From: an uncultured Methylomirabilota bacterium
GTDB taxonomy: Bacteria > Methylomirabilota > Methylomirabilia > Methylomirabilales > 2-02-FULL-66-22
Direction: 5' to 3'
Assembly: GCA_963705305.1 (NCBI GenBank)
Contig: OY970067.1
Coordinates: 5,440,001-5,504,000, forward strand
Length of the DNA stretch: 64,000 nucleotides
Of the stretch, positions 7,701-47,489 are shown piece after piece. The first letter of the stretch is position 1. Each line of letters opens with the position of its first letter. The notes beneath the pieces are model-generated. The model was given only the letters and a program-made list of their open reading frames with translations. It was not told where the DNA came from and made no database searches. The translations under genes were made by a program, and so were the position numbers.

Positions 7701-7729
7701 TTTACAACCAAACATATGTTTGGTATTTG
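7701..7729 (+). promoter_or_regulatory. sigma70-like promoter with perfect 18-bp palindromic operator ACCAAACATATGTTTGGT (7707-7724)
   Basis: TTTACA-17 nt-TATTTG; the palindrome fills the spacer; near-identical site upstream of polB2. Confidence 0.7.
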
Positions 7730-7735
7730 TGCTCC

Positions 7736-8491
7736 ATGGCCTGGGTGGGTGCCGTCACCGAAGAGAGAGGTCGTGGTCTCCTGGGCGCCGTGAGCTCTCT
7801 GGCGGAAGGGACCTCGCCGGAACTGGCGAGAGACCGCAAAGGGGTGCGGGCGGGTCTGTCCCTGCTGGCCGGTCCCCCGTTCATCCTGGATTTGGGCACT
7901 ACCCTGGCCGGCCGGGCCGCCCTTGGCGGCCTTATGGTCCTGTACGTGGACGGGGCCAACGCCTTCGACCCCTATATCCTCTCGCGCCTCGCTCGGGAGG
8001 CCGGCCAGCCTCCCGAGCCACTGCTGCGGCGCCTGCACCTCTCCAGGGCCTTCACCTGCCACCAGCTCGAGACCCTCATCGTGGAGCGCCTGCCCGCGGC
8101 CATCCTGCACTACCGCCCGGGCCTGGTGGTGATCTCTGGCTGGAGCCACCTGTTTCACGACGAGAACGTTCCCACGCGCGAGGCGCTCCGCCTGCTCCAG
8201 AACACCGCGCGACGGATCCGGTCGCTCGCCGAGGCCGGCCAGCCGATCCTGGCCACCCATCCCGACGAGCCGGCCACGCCGCGGCTTCAGCCCCTCGGCG
8301 AGATTCTGGCCCGCGCCGCCGACGGCGTCCTTCGTCTGCGCGAGGAGGACGGCCTGATCCTGGCCGTCCAGGAAAAGCCGCCGGACCCGGACGCCCGCTC
8401 GCTGGTCCTTTCGCCGGAAGACTGCCGGCTGTGGATCCACGGCCGCCATTACCAGGAATTGCCGGCGGCGTACCCATGGTCGGGGCGGTGA
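7736..8491 (+). CDS. Inactivated RadA/RecA-like ATPase-fold protein (iRadA/ImuA-like, PolB2-associated)
   Basis: VLYVDGANAFDPY and LHLSRAFTCHQL motifs; no intact Walker A. Confidence 0.75.
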   Translation: MAWVGAVTEERGRGLLGAVSSLAEGTSPELARDRKGVRAGLSLLAGPPFILDLGTTLAGRAALGGLMVLYVDGANAFDPYILSRLAREAGQPPEPLLRRLHLSRAFTCHQLETLIVERLPAAILHYRPGLVVISGWSHLFHDENVPTREALRLLQNTARRIRSLAEAGQPILATHPDEPATPRLQPLGEILARAADGVLRLREEDGLILAVQEKPPDPDARSLVLSPEDCRLWIHGRHYQELPAAYPWSGR

Positions 8492-8503
8492 GGGACGAGC
8501 TTT

Positions 8504-8711
8504 CCGCAATGCCCCCGGGGTCGCCCTGACACGCTGGCCCCGCGGGGACGGTCGGGTCCGGTCGCCGCGGAGACTAAGGTCCCGACGTGATTCCCAGCAT
8601 TGCCCCACGGCGCGGCGTGCCCCATCCCCTCGGGGCAGCGCCGCCGGAGCAAGACCGTCCCGGCAACGTCGGAGGCCAGCAGTAGGAAGGGCGGCCCCGG
8701 GGGCATTGCGG
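8504..8711 (+). repeat. ~200-nt structured intergenic element, copy 2
   Basis: 24-bp closing stem 8504-8527/8688-8711; same core and fold as 6806-7007. Confidence 0.7.
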
Positions 8712-8740
8712 TTGTCCTTGGAAGTGATGAAGGAAAAGTC

Positions 8741-9094
8741 ATGGGACGTACCGTCGCGCCGTTCAGCCAGGTCCTGGAGGCCGAGTTCGAGAGCTGGAGC
8801 AAGTTCCGCCGCGCCCTGCGCCGGGAGGACCAGGAGGCCTTCGACCGGCTCTTTGCCGCCGCCAAGTACCACGTGGCCGCCATGGTCTACGCCTCGCGCC
8901 TGACCCCTCTGGAGGCCATCCTCATGGGCATCCTGGTGGAGCACCAGAAGACCATCGGCCGGCTTGCGACCCGGGTCCGGGATCTGGAGGCGGCGGTCCG
9001 GCCCCCGCTTGTGCTGACCACGCCGGATGGGCAGCTGTCAGCGGTCAGTGGTCAGCAGTCAGCCCGTGAACATCCTCCGGTCGTTGATGGCTGA
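8741..9094 (+). CDS. Small helical PolB2-associated protein (arCOG07300-like, MGRT family)
   Basis: MGRTVAPFSQVLEAEFESWSKFRRALRREDQEAFDRLF...PLEAILMGILVEHQK; AGGA RBS. Confidence 0.75.
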   Translation: MGRTVAPFSQVLEAEFESWSKFRRALRREDQEAFDRLFAAAKYHVAAMVYASRLTPLEAILMGILVEHQKTIGRLATRVRDLEAAVRPPLVLTTPDGQLSAVSGQQSAREHPPVVDG

Positions 9095-9115: not shown

Positions 9116-10249
9116 ATGGATACCTTGTTTTCCGAACCGCAATCACCGGCCAAAGGCATCGAGCGTCTGGCGCGCGAGGCGGACCCGCTGCTCTCCAAGC
9201 GCGCCGCCACGTATCTCGGCCTGGAGGTCCGATCGGTCCTCAATCGCTGCTCCAGCGACCGCATGCCCTTCGCCTGGACCATCAATCCCTATCGGGGATG
9301 CGAGTACGGCTGCCGGTACTGCTATGCCCGCTACACCCACGAGTTCATGGGCCTCACGCAGTGGCAGGAGTTCGAGGAAAAGATTTACGTCAAGCGGGAT
9401 GCGGCCCGGATCCTGGCGCGCGAGCTGTCCCCCCGGCGCCTGGCCGGCCAGCGCATCGCCCTGGGGACCGCCACCGATCCCTACCAGCCGGCAGAGCGGC
9501 GCTACCGCGTGACGCGCAGCCTGCTGGAGGTCATGGCGCGGGCCCGCGACCTTCGCCTCTCCATCACCACCAAGAGCGATCTCGTCGTGCGCGACCTGGA
9601 CCTCCTCCGGCGGATCGCCGAACAGAGCAGCCTGCATGTCCACTTCACCGTCACCGCCCTCGACCGCCGCCTGGCGCGGATCCTGGAATTCCGCGCCCCC
9701 ACGCCGGACCTGCGCCTCAACGCCCTGCGGCGGCTGCGCGCGGCGGGAATCGCCGCCGGCGTCACCATCTCCCCGATCCTCCCGGACATCACCGACAGCC
9801 GGGCCAGCCTGGAGGCCGTCGTCGTCGTCGCCAAGGCGCACGACGCCAGCCACGTCTCCGCCAGCGTCCTGTTCCTCAAGCCGGCCGCCCAGCAGGCCTT
9901 CTTCCCGTTCCTGGCGCGTCACTTCCCCCATCTCGCCGCTCGGTACAGGGCCCGCTTCACCCGCTCGGCCTTCCTGGACCGGGGGTACAAGGACCGCATC
10001 TCACGGCTCGTGGCAGAGCTGAAGGCGAAGCACGGCTTCTCCGAGGCCAGCCACGACGAGCCCCCCACCGCCCTGCACGAGCCCGAGCCGGAACAGCTCT
10101 CCCTGCTCCAGACCGAATCCCCCGCAGGGAGAATCCTGCCCGTCGGCGCCCCTCCCGTGCGGCATCCACGGCCGGATGCCCAGACACGGCCGCAACTCTG
10201 TCCGCCCCCAATCAGAAGAGCCCGCCCCGGCAAAGAGGCCTGTCAATGA
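9116..10249 (+). CDS. Spore-photoproduct-lyase-like radical SAM protein (Rv2578c/PA0069 family)
   Basis: INPYRGCEYGCRYCYAR CxxxCxxC, GTATDPYQPAE, ITTKS, acidic QLSL tail. Confidence 0.9.
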   Translation: MDTLFSEPQSPAKGIERLAREADPLLSKRAATYLGLEVRSVLNRCSSDRMPFAWTINPYRGCEYGCRYCYARYTHEFMGLTQWQEFEEKIYVKRDAARILARELSPRRLAGQRIALGTATDPYQPAERRYRVTRSLLEVMARARDLRLSITTKSDLVVRDLDLLRRIAEQSSLHVHFTVTALDRRLARILEFRAPTPDLRLNALRRLRAAGIAAGVTISPILPDITDSRASLEAVVVVAKAHDASHVSASVLFLKPAAQQAFFPFLARHFPHLAARYRARFTRSAFLDRGYKDRISRLVAELKAKHGFSEASHDEPPTALHEPEPEQLSLLQTESPAGRILPVGAPPVRHPRPDAQTRPQLCPPPIRRARPGKEACQ

Positions 10250-10270: not shown

Positions 10271-10323
10271 TTGACAGGGAACCTCCAAGAGCGTAGCCTA
10301 GAAACCATAATGGTTCCATAATG
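10271..10323 (+). promoter_or_regulatory. Toxin-antitoxin promoter with probable autoregulatory operator
   Basis: TTGACA-17 nt-TAGCCT followed by palindrome AACCATAATGGTT and a repeated CCATAATG. Confidence 0.6.
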
Positions 10324-10346
10324 ATACCAGAGAGCGAGGTCCGGAT

Positions 10347-10589
10347 ATGCCGACGATCACACTCAAGAATATCCCCGACAAATTGTACGAACGGCTGAAA
10401 CAGAGCGCCGCCGAGCACCGACGCAGCCTCAACAGCGAGATGATCGTCCGGCTCGAGCAGGCGGTTCTGAGTGCGCGGATCGAGCCTGACGCGTATCTCG
10501 CCAGGGTTGATGCGCGACGCAGGCAGTTGGCCCTTCCCCCGCTGACCGAGCGACGTTTGAAGACGATCAAGACCGCGGGGCGGCCATGA
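10347..10589 (+). CDS. FitA/Arc-like ribbon-helix-helix antitoxin
   Basis: MPTITLKNIPDKLYERLKQSAAEHRRSLNSE; overlaps the toxin start (ATGA). Confidence 0.85.
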   Translation: MPTITLKNIPDKLYERLKQSAAEHRRSLNSEMIVRLEQAVLSARIEPDAYLARVDARRRQLALPPLTERRLKTIKTAGRP

Positions 10590-10993
10590 TCGTCGCTGAC
10601 ACCAACATGGTGGCCTACCTTCTCTTGGGAGGGGAAAAGACCCAAGGCGCGCGTTTGGCCTTCCGCAAGGATCCGGCATGGGCTGCCCCCCTTCTCTGGC
10701 GGAGTGAATTCCGTAACGTCCTGGCGACGTACCTGCGTCGCGGGAGGCTAAGCCTTTCCGAGGCAATCGAGGTAATGGGGGATGCCGAGACACTCTTCCG
10801 TGGCGCCGAGTACAGCGTGGACTCCGACCAGGTGCTTAAGCTCGCCTCCGAATCGGGCTGCTCGGCCTACGACTGCGAATTCGTTGCCCTGGCCCAACAG
10901 CTCGACGTGCCCCTGCTCACCTCGGACGCAGAGATCTTGAAGGAGTTCCCGCAGACGGCAACCTCGCTAGAGGCCTTCAGTAAGACACGCTAG
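10586..10993 (+). CDS. vapC: VapC-family PIN domain toxin
   Basis: MIVADTN, SAYDCEFVALA, LLTSD acidic PIN residues. Confidence 0.9.
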   Translation: MIVADTNMVAYLLLGGEKTQGARLAFRKDPAWAAPLLWRSEFRNVLATYLRRGRLSLSEAIEVMGDAETLFRGAEYSVDSDQVLKLASESGCSAYDCEFVALAQQLDVPLLTSDAEILKEFPQTATSLEAFSKTR

Positions 10994-11281
10994 GAGGCTT
11001 TTCGTCGCACCCGCCCTGTCGCGCCCACCCCTGACACTGCCGCCGGGTTGAGAGTAGCGTTGGGCGACTTCGGCGCTCGTCCGGTCCGTCCAGGGGAAGG
11101 CAGTCGGATGAGAGTATTTGAAACGACGGCGCACGTCGCACAGTCCGCGGTCACCCTTGCGCGAGGGGATCCCCTCCACTCCGCGGTCCCGCACTCTTTC
11201 GCACGCCCTTCCCCATCGGGACTTCGAGCAACCCCTACGACTCCCGCCCCTCCCCCTGCGCCCTTCGCTGGCTCATCACGA

Positions 11282-11476
11282 ACCACCTATCATACGTTCC
11301 GGCATTCAGGAGTTTATCCCGCATTATGCGCGACCACTCATGTGCTGGAAGCCGGGTATGACATTCGCACCGTGCAGGAACTGCTCGGACATCAGGATGT
11401 GCGAACCACCATGATCTACACCCATGTCCTGAATCGCGGAGGCAGGGGCGTTCGCAGTCCGGCTGACACGCTGTGA
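11282..11476 (+). pseudogene. intI: Integron integrase C-terminal remnant
   Basis: HTFRHS...[44 protein letters not shown], the IntI C-terminal signature; N-terminal part absent. Confidence 0.85.
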
Positions 11477-11499
11477 TGACGCCGATTGGTGTATGTCTT

Positions 11500-11664
11500 A
11501 TGCCGATCCGTATAGAATGCCATGGTAAAACGGCCCCAACCGAGGGACAGGTTGAAGAATTCACACCTTGGGTGCGATCGCGTTCGCGTATGAACCCGCG
11601 TGTTATCCTGACAGGGATTCAGGGGTTTCGTCCTTACGCGGACCCATATACTCAATAGTTAGGC
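11500..11664 (+). other. Putative attI region downstream of intI, ending in core site GTTAGGC (11658-11664)
   Basis: GTTRRRY core 24 nt before the first cassette ORF; no matching RYYYAAC hairpin. Confidence 0.5.
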
Positions 11665-11687
11665 CACAGCGAGTACTTTCCGATTTT

Positions 11688-11930
11688 ATGAAGCCTGGCA
11701 TTGTCGAAGATGGAGAGTCGAGATTACGGAGCAGCCCGGAGTTTCAGGCGCGCTTGCGTGAGTTGCGAGATTCCATTCGAGCGCGTCACGCGGCGGAGTT
11801 GGCAGCGGCAGGATTTTTTCAGCGTTTGGTTTTGCGCTGGCGGATTGCAGCCGAGTATCGGCGAGAACGCCGGAAGATTGTCCCGTCACCGCATTCACTT
11901 TACAACAGTCATATTTCGGAGCGAGTTTGA
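11688..11930 (+). CDS. Hypothetical protein, first integron cassette
   Basis: 80-aa ORF between GTTAGGC and an attC site. Confidence 0.6.
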   Translation: MKPGIVEDGESRLRSSPEFQARLRELRDSIRARHAAELAAAGFFQRLVLRWRIAAEYRRERRKIVPSPHSLYNSHISERV

Positions 11931-11945
11931 GATATGACGCCCAAG

Positions 11946-12038
11946 GTCTAACTCGCGGCTGGAGCGGGCCGGCGGCGGAGTGGCTCTTCTTGGGCGGACA
12001 GGCTCCGCCGCCCGCCGCTCAGCCGCAGGACGTTCGCT
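11946..12038 (+). other. attC site
   Basis: GTCTAAC...GTTCGCT; gcggctGgagcgg/ccgctcagccgc stem with one unpaired base; inner ggcggcggag/ctccgccgcc stem. Confidence 0.8.
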
Positions 12039-12115
12039 TAAAGTATGAACAGGGCGGTAACCGGAATCTCGCAGCCCGGCTCTGCCGGCGGCTGATTGCT
12101 GACGCTAGCCATCGC

Positions 12116-12541
12116 ATGCGCAGCCCGTGGCTCGATATTCCGTTGGCCGAGTACGAAGGGCACATGTCTTTGCCCGCCGTCGGGCAGGCAGAGATGCTTG
12201 CGGCCCAATTCGCCGAGTTGCTCGTCGAGTACTCTCCGCCATCCGTCGCCGTGATCGGGTGCGCCGGCGGCAACGGCTTTGATCGTATCTCCCCGGGAAG
12301 AACACGCCGCGTTGTCGGAGTCGACATCAACCCAGGCTACATTGAGGAAGCGTCACGCCGGTACGCGAGGAGCCTTCCGGGCTTGGAGCTTTACGTCGGC
12401 GACATTCAACAATCCGGTCTGTCCTGTGAGCCGGTCGATCTCATCTACGCCGCCCTGGTGTTCGAATACATCGAGCCGGAGCCGAGCTTTCAGGCCCTCA
12501 AGTCCCTTTGCAAACCGAACGTGGTTAAGGGACGCTGGTAA
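12116..12541 (+). pseudogene. 3'-truncated duplicate of the class I SAM methyltransferase at 15031
   Basis: 12109-12521 reads identical to 15024-15436, then breaks at the RAYT-element end. Confidence 0.85.
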
Positions 12542-13623
12542 GAAAATAAATATACACTTGGTGTATGTTGTGGTATAGAGAGACGTATGCCTAGATTGGC
12601 TCGTCTTGACGCGCCCGGTGCTTTGCACCACATCATAATCCGGGGGATAGATCGTCGGAAGATATTCCTGAGCGGGAAGGATTACGAAGACTTTCTGGAG
12701 CGTCTCGCAAGTCTTCTTCCGGAGACGAAAACTGCGTGCTATGCGTGGGCCTTATTACCGAACCACGCCCACCTTCTCCTTTGCTCGGGGGCGGTCCCAC
12801 TTGCCCGCCTGATGAGCAGGCTGCTTACCGGCTATGCGGTCGGTTTCAACCGCCGGTACAAGCGCCATGGGCATCTCTTCCAGAATCGGTACAAGTCGAT
12901 CATCTGTCAGGAAGATGTCTATCTGAGAGAATTGGTTCGCTATATTCACTTGAACCACCTCAGGGCCCGCATAGTCGCTGACGTTGCTGAACTGAATGGC
13001 TATTCCTATACCGGCCACAGCGCATTGATGGGGAGGGCGGACAGGCCGTGGCAGGACGCGGGGTACGTGCTTAAGTATTTTGGGGAAACGGTTCGAAGGG
13101 CGAGAAAGGCCTACCTTGCGCATCTCGAGGAAGGAATTGAGCAAGGGCGGCGAGAGGACTTGACGGGCGGTGGATTGATACGGAGTCTTGGGGGGTGGTC
13201 GGAGGCAAAGAAACTCGGAGGCAAGGGAAGAGATCACGTCATGAGCGACGAACGTATTCTGGGGGATACGGACTTTGTGGATTCAGTGCTTTCCCGGGCA
13301 GGAGAAGCATGTGAGCGGCGATATGAGCTGAAGCGACGTGGGTATGATTTGGAACGGATTGCCGGGAGGGTGGCGGAAATCTGTGGTATGGAAGAGAATG
13401 AGGTGTTTTCAAAGGGACGTCAGAAGGAAAAAGTGAGGGCCAGGAGCCTTCTCTGTTATTGGGCGGCCGGCGAGGCGGGGATATCGCTCAGGGCCTTGGC
13501 GAAACGATTGGGGATCAGCGCTCCAGGGGTTGGGTACGCGGTTGCAAGAGGAGAGGCCATGGTCCGGGAGAATCGCTTTGAGTTGATCCAGTGATTTAAT
13601 TACTTTCTTACGAGCGTCCCCTT
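12527..13623 (+). mobile_element. RAYT-like element 1 with imperfect terminal inverted repeats
   Basis: gggacgctggtaagaaaataaat versus reverse complement of aattactttcttacgagcgtccc; lower GC than surroundings. Confidence 0.7.
12587..13594 (+). CDS. REP-associated/IS200-like HUH tyrosine transposase with C-terminal HTH
   Basis: MPRLARLDAPGALHHIIIRGI, NHAHLLL (HUH), GHLFQNRYKS, LVRYIHLN. Confidence 0.9.
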   Translation: MPRLARLDAPGALHHIIIRGIDRRKIFLSGKDYEDFLERLASLLPETKTACYAWALLPNHAHLLLCSGAVPLARLMSRLLTGYAVGFNRRYKRHGHLFQNRYKSIICQEDVYLRELVRYIHLNHLRARIVADVAELNGYSYTGHSALMGRADRPWQDAGYVLKYFGETVRRARKAYLAHLEEGIEQGRREDLTGGGLIRSLGGWSEAKKLGGKGRDHVMSDERILGDTDFVDSVLSRAGEACERRYELKRRGYDLERIAGRVAEICGMEENEVFSKGRQKEKVRARSLLCYWAAGEAGISLRALAKRLGISAPGVGYAVARGEAMVRENRFELIQ

Positions 13624-13657
13624 TTTTCTACATCGAAAGGGAAAGCGAGGGAGAGTC

Positions 13658-13738
13658 ATGGCAAAAGGTAAGGGCGTCCAGAAGAGAGAGACCAGGAAGC
13701 CGAAGAAGGGCACGGCCAAGGGCAGCAAGAAGAAGTAG
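13658..13738 (+). CDS. 26-aa lysine-rich peptide
   Basis: MAKGKGVQKRETRKPKKGTAKGSKKK*, GGGAG RBS, attC follows. Confidence 0.55.
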   Translation: MAKGKGVQKRETRKPKKGTAKGSKKK

Positions 13739-13769
13739 GCCCAACTTGCTCCGATGGGCGGACGCCGTC

Positions 13770-13862
13770 GCCGAACTAGCGGTTGCACCGGAGTCGGCGC
13801 ACACAGATGCTCATTCCCCGTCCGGTGCCGTCGCGCCGGCCCGGTGAACCTTCTCGTTGGGC
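13770..13862 (+). other. attC site
   Basis: GCCGAAC...GTTGGGC; ggttGcaccgg/ccggtgaacc stem with unpaired base. Confidence 0.8.
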
Positions 13863-13918
13863 CCCGTCGTTGAGCTCCATCACCTATTTTCAGTTGAATC
13901 AGTTGGAGGGATTTTCTC

Positions 13919-14125
13919 ATGACTGAAACCATGCCCGACAACACCTGCCCAAAATGTGGGGGCGAGCTACACCAAACAGACAAGAACACATTCACGGGGG
14001 AAGTGTGGCGGGAGTACACCTGCCGCTCCTGTGGGCATGTTTTGGATGTCAATGAGGGCATAGCACTCTGGCAGGTTCTCCACAATTATGCAGAGAACGC
14101 AAAGCAGGAAAAAGATAAGAAATGA
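13919..14125 (+). CDS. Small zinc-ribbon protein (cassette)
   Basis: CPKCGG...CRSCGH; GGAGG RBS. Confidence 0.7.
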   Translation: MTETMPDNTCPKCGGELHQTDKNTFTGEVWREYTCRSCGHVLDVNEGIALWQVLHNYAENAKQEKDKK

Positions 14126-14556
14126 GAACGTCTCCGCCTCACCCTTCGTTCAACTCGGACTCAACAGCCACGGACAGATCTCGCCTTCGCACATCCTACC
14201 CGAGCGAGCATGGACTCGTTTTGTTCCCGGATGCCTCAATCAAGACCAGGTCGATACCTTGGTGCTTTCCGGCAACCAACGGATTTGGGGTCATTGCCTA
14301 CAACGTAAACATACCCATCACCGATCCGGGCACCCTCTCACTGGCGCCGTCCGACATCAGGCCGGCCACACAGTTTGCCGCCGTGAGCATCGATGGGACG
14401 TGCGCGGGCAACAATACGGGCAAGACGTTTCTCCGCCTCGGATATGGCACACAGTGGTCAATGGCCGTCGAGCCCGGCAACTACTGTCTTACCCTGGGTA
14501 AGGCGGCGAATCATGCGGAGGGTGTGTGGTTTACCCTGACCGCGACCCGACCGTGA
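14122..14556 (+). CDS. Hypothetical protein
   Basis: 144-aa ORF before an attC-like site; no motif recognised. Confidence 0.35.
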   Translation: MRTSPPHPSFNSDSTATDRSRLRTSYPSEHGLVLFPDASIKTRSIPWCFPATNGFGVIAYNVNIPITDPGTLSLAPSDIRPATQFAAVSIDGTCAGNNTGKTFLRLGYGTQWSMAVEPGNYCLTLGKAANHAEGVWFTLTATRP

Positions 14557-14578
14557 TCTGTGGATCTGGGACGCAGGC

Positions 14579-14663
14579 GCCCAACGAGGCGTTTCATCCG
14601 GCATCTCTGCCGACGCCGCTTTCCCCCTCCGGGGGAGCCACGGGTGAACTTGTGCATCATGGC
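14579..14663 (+). other. Degenerate attC site
   Basis: GCCCAAC, gttTcatccg/cgggtgaac stem; R' core mutated. Confidence 0.5.
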
Positions 14664-14679
14664 ATCAAGGGGACATCCC

Positions 14680-15018
14680 GTGCAGTACCTGCTGATCATC
14701 TGCCACGATGACGCCTTCACTCCGACGGAGACTCTGGTGAAGGAGATCCGCGACTGGATCACGACCATGGGAGGGCGGGGAATCTGGGTGTACGGTAACC
14801 CGCTGCGACCGCCCGGCGATGCCACGACCGTGCGAGTGCGCGAAGGCAAGCTGGTGCTCACTCCTGGGCCATTCACCGAGTCCAGAGAACACATGTGCGC
14901 GTACGAGCTGATAGAATGCGCAAGCCCCGAAGAGGCCATTGAGGTGGCGTCCCGGCATCCTATGGCAAAGGCGGCCACGATCGAGGTGCGGCCGATTTGG
15001 CGAGAATTGGCCGGCTGA
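14680..15018 (+). CDS. YciI/DGPF-family protein
   Basis: GTG start MQYLLII; ATTVRVREGKLVLTPGPFTESRE...IEVRPIW. Confidence 0.85.
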   Translation: MQYLLIICHDDAFTPTETLVKEIRDWITTMGGRGIWVYGNPLRPPGDATTVRVREGKLVLTPGPFTESREHMCAYELIECASPEEAIEVASRHPMAKAATIEVRPIWRELAG

Positions 15019-15030
15019 GGGACCCATCGC

Positions 15031-15705
15031 ATGCGCAGCCCGTGGCTCGATATTCCGTTGGCCGAGTACGAAGGGCACATGTCTTTGCCCGCCGTCGGGC
15101 AGGCAGAGATGCTTGCGGCCCAATTCGCCGAGTTGCTCGTCGAGTACTCTCCGCCATCCGTCGCCGTGATCGGGTGCGCCGGCGGCAACGGCTTTGATCG
15201 TATCTCCCCGGGAAGAACACGCCGCGTTGTCGGAGTCGACATCAACCCAGGCTACATTGAGGAAGCGTCACGCCGGTACGCGAGGAGCCTTCCGGGCTTG
15301 GAGCTTTACGTCGGCGACATTCAACAATCCGGTCTGTCCTGTGAGCCGGTCGATCTCATCTACGCCGCCCTGGTGTTCGAATACATCGAGCCGGAGCCGA
15401 GCTTTCAGGCCCTCAAGTCCCTTTGCAAACCGAACGGAATTCTGGCCACCGTGCTTCAGTTGCCCTCCCAATCAGTCGCGGCGGTGTCGCCTTCACCTTT
15501 CACCAGCCTTCAGGCGCTCGGTCCGGTCATGCGCCTCATATCGCCAGGCACCCTAAACGCCCAGGCGGAGCAGGCTGGGTTTGTGCTATTGTCATCCCGC
15601 CAGGTTGCCTTGCCTTCGCACAAGGAGTTCGCGGTGCAGGTGTTCCAGCTACCAACGGCGAACCCTTCGCCCCACGGGACGTTCCGACAAGCGGCGCGTC
15701 CCTGA
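15031..15705 (+). CDS. Class I SAM-dependent methyltransferase
   Basis: SVAVIGCAGGNG motif I, GVDINPGY, DLIYAALVFEY. Confidence 0.85.
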   Translation: MRSPWLDIPLAEYEGHMSLPAVGQAEMLAAQFAELLVEYSPPSVAVIGCAGGNGFDRISPGRTRRVVGVDINPGYIEEASRRYARSLPGLELYVGDIQQSGLSCEPVDLIYAALVFEYIEPEPSFQALKSLCKPNGILATVLQLPSQSVAAVSPSPFTSLQALGPVMRLISPGTLNAQAEQAGFVLLSSRQVALPSHKEFAVQVFQLPTANPSPHGTFRQAARP

Positions 15706-15720
15706 ACCTGGACGTTGGGC
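15657..15720 (+). other. attC site (partly degenerate)
   Basis: GGCGAAC...GTTGGGC; caCgggacg/cgtccctg stem. Confidence 0.6.
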
Positions 15721-15810
15721 TCAGGGAGAAGGTCATATTTCGTGAGAGGCTTCGAAGCCTGAAGACCATTGCTCGCTCCACACCGCATGGGCGCTGACAA
15801 GGAGAAACAG

Positions 15811-17160
15811 ATGAGGCAAAAGAAGGGGAACGACGTCGCATCGCACTGCTTGACCCGACGGGAGGCCCTACGGCTCGGGGCCGCGGCGGGGGCGGCCATC
15901 GGACCGTTCGCCTCGACGCCGGCCCGCGCGCAAGCCTTCAACTGGCAGCGCTTCAAGGGCAAAGAGGTGTACCTGATCTTTCTCAAGCATCCGTGGGTGG
16001 ACGAGATCGTCCCGCATATCCCGGAATTCGAGTCGCTCACCGGCATCAAGGTGCAGTATGAGGTCCTGCCGGAAATCCAGGCCCGCCAGAAGCTCACGGT
16101 GGAGTTTCTCTCCGGCTCCGGGGGTATAGATGCATTCATCACCAGCCTGCATGTGGAGAAGCGCCGGTTCTGGAAGGTGGGTTGGTACGAGCCCCTGAAC
16201 AAGTACCTCGCGGACAAGACGCTCACTGCGCCCGATTATGACTGGGATGACTTCACGCCCACCGCCAAGGCGGCGGCCACGCAGCCCGACAAAACCGTGA
16301 GCGCGATTCCGACTTACGTGGACCCCGACATCCTGTTCTACCGGAAAGACATCTTCCAGCAGCAGGGTCTCAAGCCCCCCAAGACCCTGCAGGAGCTGGA
16401 GGCACTGGCGCAGAAGCTCCACAATCCGCCGACCATGTACGGTTTTGTCTCACGGGGGCTCAAGAATGCCAACGCCTCCCCGTGGGCGTACGTGGTGTTT
16501 GCCTTCGGCGGCGAGTACCTCACCCCCGACCGGAAGTCCGCCATCAACTCGCCGGCCTGGGTGAAGGGCCTCGAATGGTATTCGGGGATGCTCCGCCGCT
16601 TCGCCCCGCCCGGCGTCGTGAACTTCAACTGGTACGAATGCAGCTCCGCCTTCATGCAGGGCCAGGTCGCCCTATACTACGACGGGGTGAACTTCGCGAC
16701 CCAGTTCGAGGACAAGGAGAAATCCAAGGTGGCGGGAAAGGTCGGCTACACCCTGCTGCCGGCGGGCCCGGGCGGTCTCCACACCTGCATGTTCACCACG
16801 GGCTTGTCCATCAGCGCCCAGAGCAGGAACAAGGAGGCGGCCTGGCTCTTCATCCAGTGGGCCACCACGAAGCAGAACTGTGTCCGCGAGCTGGTGGCAG
16901 GCGTCGGCGGCGGCCGCGGCTCCATCTGGAACAATCCCGAGGTCAAGGCCAGGCCGCGGATGCCGGCCGACTGGTACACGGCCTTCCAGGAAAGCCTGAA
17001 GATCGGGCGGAACGGCCTGCCCGAGATCGTGGACGTCACGCAGTACCGGGACATCATCGGGCTGGCCATCCAGAAGGCGATCGAGGGGACCAAACCGGCG
17101 GACGCCATCGCCCAGGCACACAAAGAGTTTCAGGAAATGCTGGACAAGACCGAGACGTAG
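15811..17160 (+). CDS. Sugar ABC transporter substrate-binding protein with Tat signal (no permease alongside)
   Basis: LTRREAL Tat motif; LFYRKDIF, PPKTLQEL, NKEAAWLFIQW. Confidence 0.9.
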   Translation: MRQKKGNDVASHCLTRREALRLGAAAGAAIGPFASTPARAQAFNWQRFKGKEVYLIFLKHPWVDEIVPHIPEFESLTGIKVQYEVLPEIQARQKLTVEFLSGSGGIDAFITSLHVEKRRFWKVGWYEPLNKYLADKTLTAPDYDWDDFTPTAKAAATQPDKTVSAIPTYVDPDILFYRKDIFQQQGLKPPKTLQELEALAQKLHNPPTMYGFVSRGLKNANASPWAYVVFAFGGEYLTPDRKSAINSPAWVKGLEWYSGMLRRFAPPGVVNFNWYECSSAFMQGQVALYYDGVNFATQFEDKEKSKVAGKVGYTLLPAGPGGLHTCMFTTGLSISAQSRNKEAAWLFIQWATTKQNCVRELVAGVGGGRGSIWNNPEVKARPRMPADWYTAFQESLKIGRNGLPEIVDVTQYRDIIGLAIQKAIEGTKPADAIAQAHKEFQEMLDKTET

Positions 17161-17959: not shown

Positions 17960-17972
17960 GCAGGGTGCCACC

Positions 17973-38282: not shown

Positions 38283-38335
38283 GGCAACCCGGCTGGGATA
38301 CCTCGGTCTGGCTTCTAGGGGAGGCGGAGAACGCA

Positions 38336-39148
38336 ATGGACACCGAGTCTCGGGAGACCCTCGACCGCTATACCGGACTGGCCGAAGTGTACGACGCGTA
38401 CCGGCCGCGGCCGCCGATGGTCATCGCGGACCTCCTCGCACAGCTGGCACGAACCCCCCGGCCGCGGCTGGTCGTGGATCTGGGGTGCGGCACCGGCCGG
38501 TCCACTCTTCTGTGGGCGGGCCGGGCCGATGCCGTGATCGGCATCGAGCCCAACCAGGACATGCGGTGCGTCGCGGAGGCCCGCAGGGCGGAATGCTCCG
38601 AGGCAGGCAGTATCCGGTTCCAGGCGGGCATCGCCGCCGAGACGGGCCTCCCGGACGGCTGTGCCGACATTGTGACATGCTCACAGTCCTTCCACTGGAT
38701 GGAGCCAAAATCTACGCTTGCCGAAATCGCTCGTATCCTGCACTCTGGAGGGGTCTTCGCCGCCTACGACTACCAACGGCCGCCCACGATAGATTGGGAG
38801 GCCGAACAGGTCCTTTTGACCTTCTGGTCCCGGCTGACCGCCGTCCGGGAGGCGCGCGGCTTGTCGCAGGAGCGGCGGTGGCCCAAGGAGGAGCACCTGA
38901 GTCACATGCGAGATTGCGGCCATTTCCGCTACACGCGGGAGAGCTGGGCGCATAACGTCGAGAGCGGCAACGCCGAGCGGCTGGCTGGGTATGCGCGGAG
39001 CCACGGCGGGATCAGCTCGCTGCTGCGGCAGGGACTCAGCGACGCCGAGATGGGCCTGGACGTCCTGCGCGAGGCGGCGGACCGGATCCTGGGAAGCCAG
39101 CCCCGACCCTGGTTTGTCGGCTATGCGATTCGGATTGCCATCAAGTAG
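38336..39148 (+). CDS. Class I SAM-dependent methyltransferase
   Basis: YDAYRPRPP, DLGCGTG, SQSFHWM. Confidence 0.85.
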   Translation: MDTESRETLDRYTGLAEVYDAYRPRPPMVIADLLAQLARTPRPRLVVDLGCGTGRSTLLWAGRADAVIGIEPNQDMRCVAEARRAECSEAGSIRFQAGIAAETGLPDGCADIVTCSQSFHWMEPKSTLAEIARILHSGGVFAAYDYQRPPTIDWEAEQVLLTFWSRLTAVREARGLSQERRWPKEEHLSHMRDCGHFRYTRESWAHNVESGNAERLAGYARSHGGISSLLRQGLSDAEMGLDVLREAADRILGSQPRPWFVGYAIRIAIK

Positions 39149-39260
39149 CGCGCGACAGCCGGCTCTGTGCGCTGCGCATAGTGCGGCCATTCGTTCCGAC
39201 CCCCGGCCGCGACGGCGCGTTCGCGATAGCGCGAGAGGAGAGAGCGCAGGGGGGTCCCCT

Positions 39261-39785
39261 GTGAGAGGGGTGCTTTGCGTCCTGTTCGTTGCCCTGGCCG
39301 TCGCCCTGCCGGTGTGCGCGCAGGCAGCCGACCAGGTGGCGCTGTTCAATGCCCGCCTCGAGTACACGAATCCGGATCCCCTGCGCTGGCACAAGGATGA
39401 AGAACGGCGCGATCCGAACAAGGGAGTGCTCGTCCTGAAGCGCGACGCGGTGACCGGCAGGAGGGGAGAGACCAGCCAGCCGGTGGTGGCCTTCATTTAC
39501 GAAAAGGTGCCGGGAACGGTTCGCACGCTGGACGAATATGTGAAGATGGCGCGGGATCGGACCCCCTTCACGATCGAGGATATCTCCAAGTCCGATGACC
39601 GGATCATCTATTTCTGCAATTACGACCGCGGCACCCTCCACAGGCTCGTGATCGCCCACTTCCTCTTCGAAGGCAACGGCATCCAGGTCATCGCCGATGC
39701 CGACGATGGGGCCTACGACTACGTCCAGGAGGACTTCGGGCGGCTCTTAGCCTCGATCCGGCTCCTCAAGACTGCCGGCGAGTAG
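39261..39785 (+). CDS. Hypothetical secreted protein
   Basis: Signal peptide-like N-terminus; coding-like composition. Confidence 0.6.
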   Translation: MRGVLCVLFVALAVALPVCAQAADQVALFNARLEYTNPDPLRWHKDEERRDPNKGVLVLKRDAVTGRRGETSQPVVAFIYEKVPGTVRTLDEYVKMARDRTPFTIEDISKSDDRIIYFCNYDRGTLHRLVIAHFLFEGNGIQVIADADDGAYDYVQEDFGRLLASIRLLKTAGE

Positions 39786-39868
39786 CGGCGGGCGCCGGCC
39801 CGCCCTTTCCCCTGACCGAAGAGGGGCAATCGGCCGACCGGGGCAACACCGACAGCAGCGCACGGGCT

Positions 39869-40168
39869 ATGTGGCATCCGCTGGGTCTTGCAATTCTTCT
39901 CCTGTACGGCAGCGCCTACTGCGCGGCAGCCATCGCGTGGCTGGCGGCCGTGTCCTACCTGGTCAGGACCGTTGCAAACAGGAAGCCCGGCGTCCGCCTG
40001 TGGAGCGCCGGGCTGGGATACATTCCGCTCAACCTCGTCTTCCGGCCCGATCTTCTGACGGAGCGAGGACAGCTCTGGCGGCGCCGGTTCGGGAGGTCGG
40101 TCCTCGTCTTCGTGGGTGCGCTGGCCGCCGGCGTTGCGCTGACCGGTCTGGCTGCGCTCCTCCACTGA
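39869..40168 (+). CDS. Small membrane protein
   Basis: Two hydrophobic segments. Confidence 0.55.
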   Translation: MWHPLGLAILLLYGSAYCAAAIAWLAAVSYLVRTVANRKPGVRLWSAGLGYIPLNLVFRPDLLTERGQLWRRRFGRSVLVFVGALAAGVALTGLAALLH

Positions 40169-40299
40169 AATCCCGCCCGTCCGGTGCGCGCTGCATTATC
40201 CCAGGGGAATGGGTGCCCTGCCCATCATCGGTCGCAGGCCCTGGGCTGCCAACTGGCCGGCAGAGCAGGCCGGGGCCCGGGCCGGCCCTTCCGGTCCCC

Positions 40300-41232
40300 C
40301 TACCAGATCCACCCCGCCTCGATGGCGGACAGGGTTCCCACCGACACCGCCAGCCAGAGGAGCGCCCCCTGCACCAGCGGGCGAGGACCGTTCTTCCGCA
40401 GCACGTCCCGGGTGAGGCCCAACCCGATGAGGAACAGGGTCACCACCAGGCTCTGCTTGGCCACCCCGGACAGGACATGCCAGAGGGCATCCCCCGACGG
40501 AAGGACGGTGCGGAGCGCCGCCGCCGCCACGAAGCCGGCGATGAAGAGGGGGAACTTGGCCTTGCCTTCGGATCGCATCAGCCATCCGCCGCCGAGGGCG
40601 CAGGGAACGATCCAGACGGCGCGGGTCAGCTTCACCGTGGTGGCGATCACCAGGGCCGTGCTGCCGTAGGCCGCCGCCGCGCCCACCACGCTGCTGGTAT
40701 CGTGGATGGCCAGGGCCGACCAGATGCCGAATCCGTGCTGGGACAGCGCCAGGAGATGCCCGATCACGGGGAAGAGGAGCAGGGCGATGGAATTGAGCGT
40801 GAAGACGGTCGCCAGCGCCACCGCGGTTTCGTCGTCGTCCGAGCGGATGACCGGCGCCATGGCGGCAATGGCGCTCCCGCCGCAGATGGCGGTGCCGAAA
40901 GAGATGAGGGTCGAGGTGCGGAGCGATGTCCCGGCCAGCCGGCCGAGCAGGAGGCCGAGCGTCATCGTGGCGGCGATGCCCACGGCGGTGTACACCGCCG
41001 CGTGGCGGCCGGTCGTCCAGATCGTGGAGAGGCTGATGCCGAAGCCCAGCCCCGTCACCGACGCCTGGAGCAGCCGCTTGCTCCAGCGGGAGACACCCAT
41101 CCCCCACGGGTTGCCGAGAATTATCGCAAAGCCGATTCCCGCCGCCAGCGCCAGGGGCGCCGAGGTCCACGGCAGCGCCGTGGCGGCCAGGAGAACGATC
41201 AACAGTCCCTTCTTCAGCCTGTCAGTCTGCAT
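40300..41232 (-). CDS. YeiH-family (putative sulfate exporter) membrane protein
   Basis: GTAICGGSAIAA, AIHDTSSVV, VKLTRA. Confidence 0.9.
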   Translation of the reverse strand: MQTDRLKKGLLIVLLAATALPWTSAPLALAAGIGFAIILGNPWGMGVSRWSKRLLQASVTGLGFGISLSTIWTTGRHAAVYTAVGIAATMTLGLLLGRLAGTSLRTSTLISFGTAICGGSAIAAMAPVIRSDDDETAVALATVFTLNSIALLLFPVIGHLLALSQHGFGIWSALAIHDTSSVVGAAAAYGSTALVIATTVKLTRAVWIVPCALGGGWLMRSEGKAKFPLFIAGFVAAAALRTVLPSGDALWHVLSGVAKQSLVVTLFLIGLGLTRDVLRKNGPRPLVQGALLWLAVSVGTLSAIEAGWIW

Positions 41233-41356
41233 TCCCTTCCCCCTTCACAATCGTGCGCGATCCGCATCCTGGGAAAATTAGCCTTGCAAAGATAGCAGGC
41301 TAGCTATATAAGCATAAATTCAAAATAGTGATATATATAATCAATCGGATTGATAT

Positions 41357-43530: not shown

Positions 43531-45006
43531 ATGCCAGCGGAAGAGCTTCGGAATTACATCGGCGGGAAATGGGTGCGCTCCACCGGCCTCGGCCGCCAGG
43601 ATGTCGTGAATCCGGCCACCGGCGATGTTATGGCGTCCGTCCCGTTGTCCTCGCCCGCGGAGGTGGATCAGGCGGCGGCCGCCGCCGAGAAGGCATTCGA
43701 AGGCTGGCGCCGGACGCCCGCCCCCCAGCGCATCCAATGCCTGTTCACGCTCAAGGCACTCCTGGAGGAGCACTTCGAGGACCTCGCCCGCACCATCACC
43801 ATGGAGAACGGGAAGATCCTGCCCGAGGCCCGGGCCGAGATGCGCCGGGCCATAGAGAATGTCGAGACGGCCTGCGGCATCCCCACCCTCATGCAGGGCG
43901 ATTTCTCCGAGGACATCGCCCGGGGCATCGACGAGTACACGATCCGCCAGCCGGTGGGCGTCGTCTCGACCATCGCCCCCTTCAACTTCCCGGGGATGAT
44001 CCCCTTCTGGTACCTGCCCTACGCCCTGGCCTGCGGCAACGCCGTGATCCTGAAGCCGTCGGAGCGGACCCCCATCACCATGCAGAAGGTGTTCGGGCTG
44101 CTGGAGAAAGCCGGCTTCCCGCCCGGCGTCGCCAACCTGATCAACGGCGGCGCGGACACGGTGAATGCCATCCTGGACCACCCCGTCATCCGGGGGATCA
44201 CCTTTGTCGGCTCCACGCCGGTGGCGCGTCACATCTACAGCCGCGCCGCCGCCAACGGCAAGCGCGTCCAGGCGCAGGGAGGCGCCAAGAACCCGCTGAT
44301 CATCCTTCCCGATGCAGACCCGGAGTTGACCACCCGCATCGTGACCGACAGCGTCTACGGCAACGCGGGCCAGCGCTGCCTGGCGGCCTCGCTGGTCATT
44401 ACGGTCGACGGGGCGGATCGCGCCTTCATGCCCGCCTTGAGCGAGGCGGCCGCCAGGCGGGTCGTCGGGTACGGCCTGGATCCCGATGTCCAGATGGGTC
44501 CCGTCATCACCCCCGAGAGCAAGGCCCGCATCCGGGGGCTCGTCCAGAAGGGCCTGGACGAGGGGGCAAAGCTTTTGGTGGATGGGCGGGACGCGGCCGT
44601 CGCGGGGTACGAGCACGGGAACTTCCTCCGCCCGACCATCCTGAAGGGCGTGGCCCCCGGCAGCACCATCGCGCGCACCGAGATTTTCGGGCCGGTCATG
44701 GCCCTGCTGCGCGCGGAGACCGTGGACGAGGCCATTGCCCTGGTCAACAGCGGCGAGTACGGCAACATGGCCTGCGTCTTCACCGGCAGCGGCGCGGCGG
44801 CGCGCCGATTCCGCTACGAGGCCCAGGCCGGCAACATCGGCATCAACATCGGGGTAGCTGCCCCCATGGCCTTCTTCCCCTTCAGCGGCTGGCGGAGCAG
44901 CTTCTTCGGCACGCTGCACGCCCAGGGCAAGCACGCGGTGGAGTTCTTCACCCAGACCAAGGTCGTCGTGGAGCGCTGGCTCGAGGAATGGTCCCGCCCC
45001 TTCTGA
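43531..45006 (+). CDS. mmsA: CoA-acylating methylmalonate-semialdehyde dehydrogenase
   Basis: PFNFP, KPSE, FVGST, GGAKN, GQRCLA, EIFGPV. Confidence 0.9.
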
Positions 45007-45090
45007 CCGCCGCCGCGCGCGACGCGTCTGGGGACAGCTGACCTGGCTTGACCTCTCCCGTGCCCTCCTCCTGCCCGGGAAAGATTCTCC

Positions 45091-45119
45091 TTGAATACCA
45101 TACGCATGTTTGGTATATT
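45091..45119 (+). promoter_or_regulatory. sigma70-like promoter with operator ACCATACGCATGTTTGGT (45097-45114)
   Basis: TTGAAT-17 nt-TATATT; same motif and geometry as 7701-7729. Confidence 0.7.
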
Positions 45120-45143
45120 CGACACGATCCGTGAGCCATTCCC

Positions 45144-47489
45144 ATGAATCCTCCACATGCCTTGCTGACGGGCTGGATCTTCGACACGTACCCGACCAAT
45201 GGCGGGATGGTGGTGTGGATTGTGGACGAGGCGGGGAAGAGCCACCGCCTGACAGACCCGTTCCAGCCCAGCTTCTACGCCGCGGGGCCCGTCAAGGCGC
45301 TCCGGCAGCTCGCCGCAGACCTCGCCCGCCTGCACCTCGCGGCGCCAGTCGGAATGACCCACCGGACGGAATTCTGGAGCGGCGACCTGCGCGAGGTGCT
45401 GGAATTCCGCCTCCTCGATCCCGAGCGGCAGCCGGCCCTCCTCCGCCGGCTCGCGGTCCCGCGCCCCGGGCATCACCCTCTACGACTGCGACCTGGCGCC
45501 GGCGCTCACCTACTGTCACGCCCGGGGGATCTTTCCGCTGGCAAAAGTGACTGCCACCGTGGGAACGACCAATGATCAATTCTCAACGACCAATGCGGGG
45601 GCGGGGGAGGCAAATTCGAAATTCGAAATTCGAAATTGCAGTTTCGGGTGGAGGGATCGACGTGGGACCTGGACTATCCGGAGCCGCCGCTCACGCTGAT
45701 GGTCCTGACCTGCCAGGGGGACGAGCAGGGGCGCGGCGCCCCCCTCGGGAGGCTCCGCTCGCTCACCGTCGCCTGTGCCGGCGACCAAGCCACCATCGAG
45801 GAGGGCGACCCCGAGACGCTCCTCGCCGAGCTGAACACCCTCATCCGCCGCTTCGACCCCCACGCCATCGTCACCGACTGGGGCGACGCCTTCCTGGTGC
45901 CGGCGCTCCTCGCCCTGGCGGCGCGCGCCCGCATCCCGCTGGACCTCGACCGCGACATGGTCCGGCGCCGCATCCGGAGCGCGGGCCGCTCCTACTTCTC
46001 CTACGGGCGCGTCGTCTACCAGGCGCCCTCCTACCCGTTCTTCGGCCGCTGGCACCTGGACTCCCGGAACTCCTTCATCCTGAAAGAGACGGCGCTGGCC
46101 GGCCTGTTCGAGCTCAGCCGCCTGTCCAAGGTCCCCGTGCAGAAGATGGCCCGGACCTCGCCCGGCTCGGCCATCAGCATGATGCAGCTCGACCGGGCCC
46201 TCACCGACGGGATCCTGGTTCCCTGGAAGAAGGGCGAGCCGGAGCGGTGGAAGACCGCCTGGGATCTCTTGGTGGCGGACAAGGGCGGCCTGGTTTACCA
46301 GCCCGTCACCGGCATCCACGAGGGCGTGGCCGAGGTGGACTTCGCCTCCATGTACCCCGCCATGATGGCCCGCCACAACATCTCGCCCGAGACGGTGGAC
46401 TGCGCCTGCTGCCCGGACAATGCCGCCCCCGAGATCGGCTACTCCACCTGCCGCCGCCGGGACGGCCTGGTCACCAGGACGCTGCGCCCGATCTTGGCCC
46501 GCCGGCAAGAGCTGAAGCGGCTGCGGAACGCGGCCTCCGGCTCCGCGCGTGAGCGGTACGACCACCGCCAGACCGCCCTCAAGTGGATCCTGGTGACCTG
46601 CTTCGGCTACCTGGGCTACAAGAATGCCCGCTTCGGGCGGATCGAAGCCCACGAGACGGTGACCGCCTACGCCCGCGAAAAGCTCCTCGCCGCCGTGAAC
46701 CTGGCCGGGGACCGCGGCTTCCGCGTGCTGCACGCCATCGTGGACTCCATGTGGATTGCGAAGCCTGGGGCGACCGAGGCCGAGGTGCGGGACCTCTGCC
46801 GGGCCATCCAGGAGGCGGTGGGGATCGACATCAACCTGGAGGGCTTCTACAAGTGGGTGAGCTTTCTCCCCTCGCGCGTGGACCCCAACGTCTCCGTGGC
46901 CAACCGGTACCTGGGGGCCTTCGCGAACGGGGAGCTGAAGCTGCGGGGGATCGACCTGCGCCGCGCCGACACGCCGCCCCTGGTGGCCGAGGCCCAGCAG
47001 CGCATGGTGGAGATCCTGGGCGCGGCGGACGACCTGGCGGGATTCGCGGCACGGATCCCCCGGGTCCTGGAAGTCCTCGCGGAGTACGCCTGGCGGTTGC
47101 GCGAGGGGCAGGTGCGCCTGGACCAGCTCACCATCAAGCGCACCGTCTCCAAGGAGGCGGGCGAGTACAGGACCAACAGCCAGGTCGGGCTGGCCAGCCG
47201 GCAGATGGCCGACCGGGGCGCAGCCGTGCATCCCGGCGAGCGGGTCCGCTACGTGATCAGCGACGCCGACGCCGGGAACGTCGAGGCGCGGGTCACGGTG
47301 GCGCCCCTCCTCGGCGCCGACACGCCGTATGACACGGCCGCGTACCTGGAGCTGCTCTGCCGGGCGGCCGAGACGCTCCTCTGGCACCACGGCTACGATG
47401 TGGCGCGCCTGAAAGCCTTCCTGGCCGAGCGCGGCGTCGCCCCGGCCGGCCGGCAGGGGTCCCGCGTCTCACGCTCAGCACCAAGGTAA
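45144..47489 (+). CDS. B-family DNA polymerase, PolB2 group; two frameshifts in 45455-45640
   Basis: DFASMYP (motif A), RQTALKWILVTCFGYLG (B), HAIVDS (variant C), KLRGID; +1 frame segment LYDCDL...RGIFPLA joins the two ORFs. Confidence 0.85.

Follow-up and report, generated by a model that had tools for sequence, protein, structure and literature searches.

A bacterial PolB2 mutasome probably encoded as two LexA-type transcription units 35 kb apart in a Methylomirabilota genome

The stretch analysed here, a 64-kb segment of contig OY970067.1 from an uncultured Methylomirabilota bacterium (hereafter the window; 66.8% guanine plus cytosine, GC), carries the genes of a PolB2 DNA polymerase module at two separate sites. 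At the first site, a promoter overlapping a palindrome is followed by genes for an inactivated RadA-like protein (iRadA), the small protein PPB2 and a radical S-adenosylmethionine (SAM) enzyme resembling spore photoproduct lyase (SPL); at the second, the polymerase gene polB2 stands alone, 35 kb past the PPB2 unit (PPB2 end 9094, polB2 start 45144), behind a promoter-operator of the same type. The association of PolB2 with iRadA and arCOG07300, as PPB2 was formerly called, and the link of bacterial PolB2 to lexA were described by Makarova et al. 2014 (PMC4104785), and a mutasome model for PolB2 was presented by Timinskas et al. 2025 (PMC11791011). The closest relatives of the window PolB2, PPB2 and radical SAM proteins (63-89% identity) come from metagenome-assembled genomes named candidate division NC10 or Methylomirabilota. 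The features at the two sites are listed below in nucleotides (nt) of the window, with protein lengths in amino acids (aa) and open reading frames abbreviated as ORFs.

7701..7729, + strand: promoter-operator A (−35 TTTACA 7701-7706; ACCAAACATATGTTTGGT 7707-7724; −10 TATTTG 7724-7729)
7736..8491, + strand: iRadA, ATG at 7736, 251 aa, Rad51/RadA-like core without ATPase motifs
8741..9094, + strand: PPB2 (formerly arCOG07300), 117 aa, N-terminal MGRT arm
9116..10249, + strand: SPL-like radical SAM enzyme (COG1533 'DNA repair photolyase' type), 21 nt past the PPB2 stop
45091..45119, + strand: promoter-operator B (−35 TTGAAT 45091-45096; ACCATACGCATGTTTGGT 45097-45114; −10 TATATT 45114-45119)
45144..47489, + strand: polB2, interrupted; N-terminal part from ATG 45144, 617-aa ORF at 45636-47489

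A PolB2 query alignment was built from the window ORF and 12 of 120 listed matches, with P0002 as its first row, and one profile search of genome contigs with this alignment gave 80 loci listed of 560 confirmed stretches. Locus counts given below were obtained by tblastn of window proteins against these 80 listed PolB2 loci (1.17 Mb), which are designated by L numbers where they have to be told apart. Homologues of iRadA were present at 56 of the 80 loci, nearly all immediately upstream and in the order iRadA-PPB2-PolB2. The window iRadA alone gave weak direct matches to Rad51/RadA (E 0.002-0.02), and a profile of 44 sequences (A2; the window and 43 of the 56 matching loci, with ORF lengths of 178-257 aa) matched 1pzn at E 8e-10 together with 37 further Rad51/RadA/DMC1 chains. 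This match begins past the Walker A region; Walker A (GxxxxGK[ST]) was found in none of the 44 sequences, and the Walker B Asp of Rad51 is aligned to Gly in the profile.

PPB2 starts with MGRTVAPFSQ at 8741, and M1, G2, R3 and T4 are invariant across 59 aligned PPB2 sequences (the loci used were 58 of the 61 with a match, L026 being excluded because of a stop codon and two further rows because of their start or length), MGRT being described as the hallmark motif of PPB2, earlier arCOG07300, in PMC11791011. Position 9 of the window protein is Ser, whereas Arg is common elsewhere. Homologues of PPB2 lie directly before PolB2 at 61 of the 80 loci. The AlphaFold2 (AF2) model, with a predicted local distance difference test score (pLDDT) of 83, has a free arm at residues 1-7, helices at 8-24, 28-51 and 56-86, and a disordered tail; this C-terminal extension derives from a CAGCGGT heptamer array (9032-9063) and brings the protein to 117 aa, against 98-99 aa in close relatives. 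Pfam and NCBIfam searches gave no family for PPB2, whose precomputed family label is PF26485.1, and a literature search for the term PF26485 returned no match.

The 617-aa PolB2 ORF matched PF00136 (E 1e-32) and scored 410 bits against NF004416 (E 2e-122, below the cut-off of 516), whereas Pol II models gave only E 1e-5 to 7e-10. In alignment A4, which comprises the window, its clade and 60 other loci, most of them operon-borne, it is 44-52% identical to PolB2 of the 60 other (non-clade) loci. Motif A is DFASMYP with D235 and motif B is KWILVTCFGY with K316 (617-aa ORF numbering), and IVD at 368-370 (HAIVDSMWI) takes the place of DxD; DK at 215-216 is invariant in A4 and is preceded by the iRadA-binding loop at 198-214. 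From a reading of the sequence, PPLTLMVLTCQGDEQ stands where the DxE-type ExoI stretch would be expected. Near-identical relatives were entered as PolB2 with 'IVD' in the 2025 census (PMC11791011 supplement). In a FastTree of 64 PolB2 rows (63 of the 80 loci and the window), the window sequence groups with L002-L004 at a support of 100, and in this unrooted tree the group falls in the same half as operator-bearing clades of Thermodesulfobacteriota. The initial annotation had pointed to a PolB2-type rather than Pol II-type polymerase, an arCOG07300 protein and an inactivated RadA, and every point on which these identities could have fallen speaks in their favour.

Both promoter-operators follow one layout. 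Site A is laid out as TTTACA-ACCAAACATATGTTTGG-TATTTG with the iRadA ATG 7 nt downstream, and site B as TTGAAT-ACCATACGCATGTTTGG-TATATT ahead of polB2; at both, an 18-bp palindrome of the form ACYAWAC-N4-GTWTRGT occupies the 17-nt spacer that separates −35 from −10, in identical register. The palindrome pair gave the only two matches within three mismatches in the 64 kb (none expected from 100 shuffles), and the promoter scan recognized site B as sigma-70-like (9 of 12, TG-extended). Further candidate copies at 19746, 25549 and 35635 (2-3 mismatches) were rejected as being at chance level (five found versus 2.9 expected), the one at 19746 also having no −35/−10 context.

With at most one mismatch, ACYAWAC-N4-GTWTRGT occurs at 20 sites in the 1.17 Mb of the listed loci, as compared with 0-3 in five shuffles. 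TTGACA stands directly 5' at 18 of these 20 (TTGAAA in L016, TTGATA in L046; the L066 box is shifted upstream by one base), and TAT or TAC stands directly 3' of all of them. Of the 20, 17 lie just upstream of a Pfam-confirmed lexA heading a lexA-iRadA-PPB2-PolB2 operon, mostly in Thermodesulfobacteriota, one directly precedes iRadA as in the window (L027), and two stand before the solitary polB2 genes of L003 and L004, both of them close relatives. Because 17 of the 20 related sites directly precede lexA, the palindrome is best read as the predicted LexA box of such PolB2 modules, and the shared operator that had been claimed for the two loci is of the same promoter-operator type as that at lexA in the related operons. 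Enrichment of lexA next to bacterial PolB2 has been reported (PMC4104785, PMC11791011). No operator was found before PolB2 in the gapped operons L061, L065 and L075 or in L052; at the last of these, a delta-proteobacterial locus (9200-9990) in which neither iRadA nor PPB2 was detected, lexA lies directly before PolB2 and the promoter carries a CTGT-N8-ACAG-like box (CTGTACAAAAGAACAG). A literature search on PolB2, LexA and bacteria returned nothing on an operator, the motif sequence itself not having been searched.

The two loci were also connected at the protein level by a two-chain model of the 617-aa PolB2 ORF with iRadA, for which alignments A4 and A2 were used (these are self-built, so that the calibration counts hold roughly). 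The pair reached an interface score (ipSAE) of 0.77, as compared with 0.04 for the best of three controls; the 0.77 mark is reached by 116 of 157 solved complexes and by 2 of 215 mismatched pairs. Model runs shared at least 92% of contacts, with a partner pLDDT of at least 70. The predicted interface is PolB2 ORF 198-215 (KKGEPERWKTAWDLLVAD), the loop before DK, which is described in PMC11791011 as a Rad51-oligomerization-like iRadA-binding site. The model supports a predicted binding of PolB2 to iRadA.

The separation of the loci recurs in relatives of the window. No iRadA or PPB2 was found in the 0.6-3 kb available upstream of polB2 in L001-L004, and in the census of PMC11791011, which has 24 NC10 rows, every one of the 11 entries that carry the window-type motif is assigned to group '6 (only PolB2)'. 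The contiguous PolB2 operon (census group 1a) is absent from the window, where the order iRadA, PPB2, PolB2 is kept on one strand without the genes being adjacent. The 2025 census left the clade unpaired with partners because its polymerases were filed as 'only PolB2', and the census table contains none of the accession numbers of PPB2 and radical SAM proteins from relatives, which fits this filing. For three of these census assemblies, the accessions of PPB2 or radical SAM homologues and those of PolB2 belong to one number series, and radical SAM OGC01471.1 and PolB2 OGC01487.1, which may share a contig, are 16 accession numbers apart. To judge from these sequences, the split of the PolB2 system characterizes the clade; in the window, all features lie where the initial annotation had placed them, in two loci about 35 kb apart. 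Downstream of polB2, genes for RecD2, a second radical SAM protein and BipA are conserved in L001, L002, L004 and L005, and the upstream genes differ in every relative.

The third gene of the first unit carries a CxxxCxxC motif and matched Pfam PF04055 (Radical_SAM, E 2e-16). It scored 258 bits against NF038135 (Rv2578c model, cut-off 430) and 244 bits against NF033668 (PA0069 model, cut-off 360), and only 17.5 bits against the SPL model TIGR04070 (cut-off 400), placing it outside SPL proper. By these scores, it is a member of the wider COG1533-type superfamily only, outside both equivalogs. A sequence search against solved structures gave no match; for its AF2 model (72-row alignment, pLDDT 88), the top six fold matches in the PDB are all spore photoproduct lyase (4fhc, E 7e-10; TM 0.53-0.59; 14% identity).

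We consider it likely that the genes of the window specify the bacterial PolB2 mutasome already described, arranged as two co-induced LexA-type transcription units instead of one operon. Starting from the observed identities of iRadA, PPB2 and PolB2, the operator similarity with its lexA link in relatives and the clade-wide split, a course of LexA binding, co-induction, assembly and translesion synthesis may be proposed. The first unit would consist of promoter-operator A, iRadA, PPB2 and the SPL-like radical SAM gene, and the second of promoter-operator B and polB2. A repressor of the LexA type, its gene lying outside the window, would sit on both palindromes and block RNA polymerase; upon DNA damage, the repressor would be cleaved and both units would fire together. 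The separately encoded proteins would come together in trans: iRadA would bind the PolB2 loop that immediately precedes the DK motif, the MGRT arm of a PPB2 trimer would lie in a cleft of the complex, and the assembled complex would perform translesion synthesis. Most likely, the split arose by accessory genes accumulating between the PPB2-radical SAM genes and polB2, which would have stayed anchored to its conserved right flank (RecD2, second radical SAM, BipA).

Several observations weigh against this reading. Site A, whose −10 box is weak, was not called by the consensus promoter scan, and since no operator within three mismatches was found in the 2.6-3 kb upstream of polB2 in L001 and L002, which are the nearest relatives for which upstream sequence is available, the polB2 operator is present in three of five clade members and not in all. 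No lexA was found in the window by a Pfam scan of 52 further ORFs. A GC-rich gap of 250 nt (8492-8740), for which no function was found, parts iRadA from PPB2, whereas in related operons the genes abut or overlap, and accession gaps suggest that 0-2 genes lie between PPB2 and the radical SAM gene in relatives, so that the latter is not strictly operonic. As to the complex, the published evidence in PMC11791011 is all in silico, and because the interface is Rad51-like, our model score may partly be memory of solved Rad51-Rad51 interfaces. Lastly, polB2 is split as assembled into two ORFs, 45144-45575 and 45636-47489, by an in-frame TGA at 45573-45575.

The interruption of polB2 could be traced to two lesions. 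Frame 0 matches the relatives until ...LAVPRPG (about 45465), the next stretch, ITLYDCDL...LAKV..., reads in frame +1, and frame 0 resumes at KFEIRNSKLQFRVEGS. DNA alignment with L001-L004 placed the first lesion, one extra base, within CGCGCCCCGGGC (45460-45471); the second is in an AAATTCG array (45612-45637), which has three full units versus four in L002, one unit being missing. The net change is −6 nt, and the approximately 150 nt between the lesions, which hold the TGA, are out of frame. Full-length relatives of PolB2 have 746-810 aa, and polB2 of L002, L003 and L004 is a single intact ORF; an apparent frameshift in L001 was rejected, its split being a run of N. The linker between the N-terminal and exonuclease-like domains is built of heptanucleotide repeats (TGACCAA-like and AAATTCG, 45480-45640), which are also found in L001 (3490-3660) and L002-L004 and vary in length and sequence (MTNDQ..., NSKFEIRNSK, NPQSAIRNPQ). 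Three period-7 tandem arrays occur in the window as a whole: CGTCTCC at 6548-6642, CAGCGGT at 9032-9063 and AAATTCG at 45612-45637.

With polB2 disrupted in the assembly, either the complex is non-functional here or the sequence contains two local errors. That polB2 is a recent pseudogene, and the two-locus system a relic in this genome or an iRadA-PPB2-radical SAM set working without the polymerase, is a serious possibility, though not the one we favour. Random sequencing error should be rare, since about 7,400 codons of other long window genes run without interruption; the source annotation gives only a 613-aa polymerase protein (P0001), other window genes are truncated or split, and the census entry MBI2164113.1 (row 2590, supplementary file 1, PMC11791011) begins MRFEVEGS at a Leu codon equivalent to the start of the 617-aa ORF, so that a second assembly may also have a disrupted 5' part. 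On the other hand, both lesions sit in slippage-prone contexts, a C4G3 run and a short tandem repeat, and assembly error is possible for this reason; the 3' 617 codons are intact with a third-position GC (GC3) of 0.95 and keep every catalytic and binding motif, operator B is intact, and the three relatives with uninterrupted polB2 likewise speak against decay. A further idea, that the AAATTCG array acts as a slipped-strand frameshift switch in which gain or loss of a 7-nt unit turns the polymerase on or off, is allowed by the conservation of the array in L002-L004, the one unit missing from the window and the same internal start in MBI2164113.1, and we regard it as highly improbable; if true, it would put a contingency locus on top of SOS control, and the unlinked polB2 would switch without touching iRadA-PPB2-radical SAM.

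The remaining alternatives concern how the genes belong together. If the palindrome belonged to another regulator, or were a mere conserved promoter element, the loci would not be co-induced by damage: LexA binding is predicted from sequence with no lexA found in the window, we know of no LexA box that the palindrome matches, and the PolB2-linked lexA of L052 uses its CTGT-N8-ACAG-like site instead. Against this stand the 17 related sites in the classic autoregulatory position directly upstream of lexA, the overlap of the palindromes with the −35/−10 spacer, as in repressor sites, and the lexA enrichment beside bacterial PolB2 already in print, and we find this explanation distinctly unlikely. 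Still less credible, to the point of being nearly negligible, is that the two loci are unrelated acquisitions and PolB2 does not work with this iRadA-PPB2 pair. The loci are 35 kb apart with different neighbours, and among the matches listed no PolB2 contig matches a PPB2 or radical SAM contig; however, the promoter-operator is common to both, the predicted interface is specific, the nearest outside relatives of both loci are in Thermodesulfobacteriota-type operons, and both co-occur in the same assemblies, with OGC01471.1 and OGC01487.1 in close succession. The radical SAM enzyme, for its part, could be a functional fourth component of the mutasome, processing or reversing lesions for PolB2. 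Its gene begins 21 nt after PPB2, no terminator-like site was found between iRadA, PPB2 and the radical SAM gene, PPB2 and radical SAM homologues lie on same-size contigs in 10 cases (1452 to 9455 bp, some only 1.5-1.9 kb), four NCBI accession pairs of these homologues are 1-3 numbers apart, the nearest solved fold is a DNA-lesion lyase, and Table S1 of PMC11791011 records Radical_SAM, without comment, in 65 of 1823 PolB2 neighbourhoods. However, a radical SAM homologue is present at none of the 80 listed PolB2 loci, 0-2 genes appear to intervene in relatives, and COG1533 enzymes have been reported in SOS regulons of species without PolB2 (PMC3381160, PMC8565304), including a LexA chromatin immunoprecipitation peak at Rv2578c/Rv2579 (PMC3381160) and SOS-regulated SplB radical SAM proteins in several species, as in a Bacteroidetes network (PMC8565304). 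A subunit role is thus unlikely, and the radical SAM partner suggested by the initial annotation is not supported: to judge from the contigs and accessions, linkage of PPB2 and the radical SAM gene is conserved in the clade with 0-2 genes between, which makes the enzyme a conserved PPB2 neighbour there, and most likely it is a separate SOS-induced DNA-repair gene on a shared transcript.

Between the two PolB2-related units lies an accessory island, and polB2 is followed by its conserved flank:

10300..41300: accessory island between the units; many small plus-strand genes, several of them split
10347-10993: VapBC toxin-antitoxin pair, directly after the radical SAM gene
11048-11476: C-terminal remnant of an integron integrase (TIGR02249 E 6e-24, last ~57-60 positions only)
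12587-13594: REP-type tyrosine transposase with a DnaA-C-like helix-turn-helix, inserted in a methyltransferase gene
50034-54360: RecD2 helicase (TIGR01448, 915 bits) and a divergent unclassified radical SAM protein (52864-54360)

The left end of the island is lower in GC (57-63% at 10-16 kb versus 67% overall), and GC skew is unusual at 13-14 kb (0.24). A 300-nt perfect direct repeat (12109-12408 and 15024-15323), in which part of the methyltransferase gene is duplicated, flanks the transposase insertion (11927-15705). The integrase remnant and the many small plus-strand genes gave the island the look of an integron cassette array, an idea that was rejected: a crude scan for attC-like sites (RYYYAAC...GTTRRRY hairpins) gave none on either strand, no repeated cassette-like element was seen, and intI is a remnant. 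Genes are found between PPB2 and PolB2 elsewhere as well (5.5 kb in L061, 8.8 kb in L065 and one gene in L075), the cargo of L061 (4500-10000) and L065 (1200-9960) being of defence or mobile type: DNA methylases, an MNT/HEPN pair, a GyrI-like protein, a Ser/Thr kinase and HEAT-repeat proteins, of which the DNA methylase, MNT/HEPN and GyrI-like genes belong to L061. None of the 80 listed PolB2 loci has a homologue of any of five flanking window proteins, no operator was found between the downstream RecD2 and second radical SAM genes, and no RNA family reached the Rfam gathering score within the window. Among the incomplete genes of the window, a beta-lactamase-family gene is split into two ORFs, a DDE transposase gene into two that overlap, and an amidohydrolase gene lacks the part for its N-terminal half (17973-19022; 54640-56093; 2636-3580).

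Among known systems, the window is closest to the lexA-iRadA-PPB2-PolB2 operon, with which it shares all three proteins with the MGRT arm, IVD, DK loop and loss of Walker A, the order iRadA, PPB2, PolB2 on one strand, and the promoter-operator type found at lexA in 17 related operons. It differs in that polB2 lies 35 kb downstream with its own promoter-operator copy, the first unit has no lexA at its head, a COG1533 radical SAM gene follows PPB2, and polB2 is frameshifted in the assembly. The mutasome that the initial annotation had envisaged fits the PolB2 system and is, as such, not new, having been published in 2014 and 2025 (PMC4104785, PMC11791011). Its analogy to ImuA-ImuB-DnaE2 holds as far as a LexA-linked mutasome is concerned, the closest form being the split mycobacterial cassette, in which imuA'-imuB and dnaE2 are separate, LexA-associated loci (Erill et al. 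2006, as cited in PMC10421592). There too, accessory and polymerase genes are in separate loci, induced together in that case, and an inactive RecA-like or accessory protein is combined with a non-Y-family polymerase, whereas the proteins themselves are unrelated (ImuA', ImuB and C-family DnaE2 versus iRadA, PPB2 and B-family PolB2), and we claim no homology.

A parallel to the Escherichia coli Pol V mutasome (UmuD'2C-RecA-ATP) was drawn in PMC11791011; it is likewise a LexA-controlled translesion complex, in which a polymerase is joined by a RecA-family protein and by a small subunit that forms oligomers, but its polymerase belongs to the Y family, its RecA is active and umuDC forms one operon. 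E. coli Pol II (polB) shares the B-family fold and SOS control, but has an active exonuclease and DxD and needs no iRadA or PPB2. The COG1533 'SplB' proteins of SOS networks (PMC3381160, PMC8565304) belong to the same superfamily as the window enzyme and also stand behind a LexA-type operator, whereas the window gene scores under both equivalog cut-offs and is predicted to be co-transcribed with iRadA-PPB2, an arrangement that appears in neither PMC3381160 nor PMC8565304, as far as the accessible parts of these sources go.

What is new here is a clade whose unlinked PolB2 bears, by sequence, its own copy of the module's promoter-operator, together with an explicit, predicted operator consensus, the radical SAM companion and the heptamer-repeat lesion. 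The known picture of how the complex functions is unchanged, and the window adds to a system already described without upsetting it. The 'only PolB2' polymerases of the NC10/Methylomirabilota clade would accordingly not be orphans, their iRadA-PPB2 partners being encoded at another place of the same genome and preceded by a promoter-operator of the shared type; in this clade an SPL-like radical SAM gene repeatedly accompanies the system, and PolB2 modules of at least two phyla gain a concrete operator sequence.

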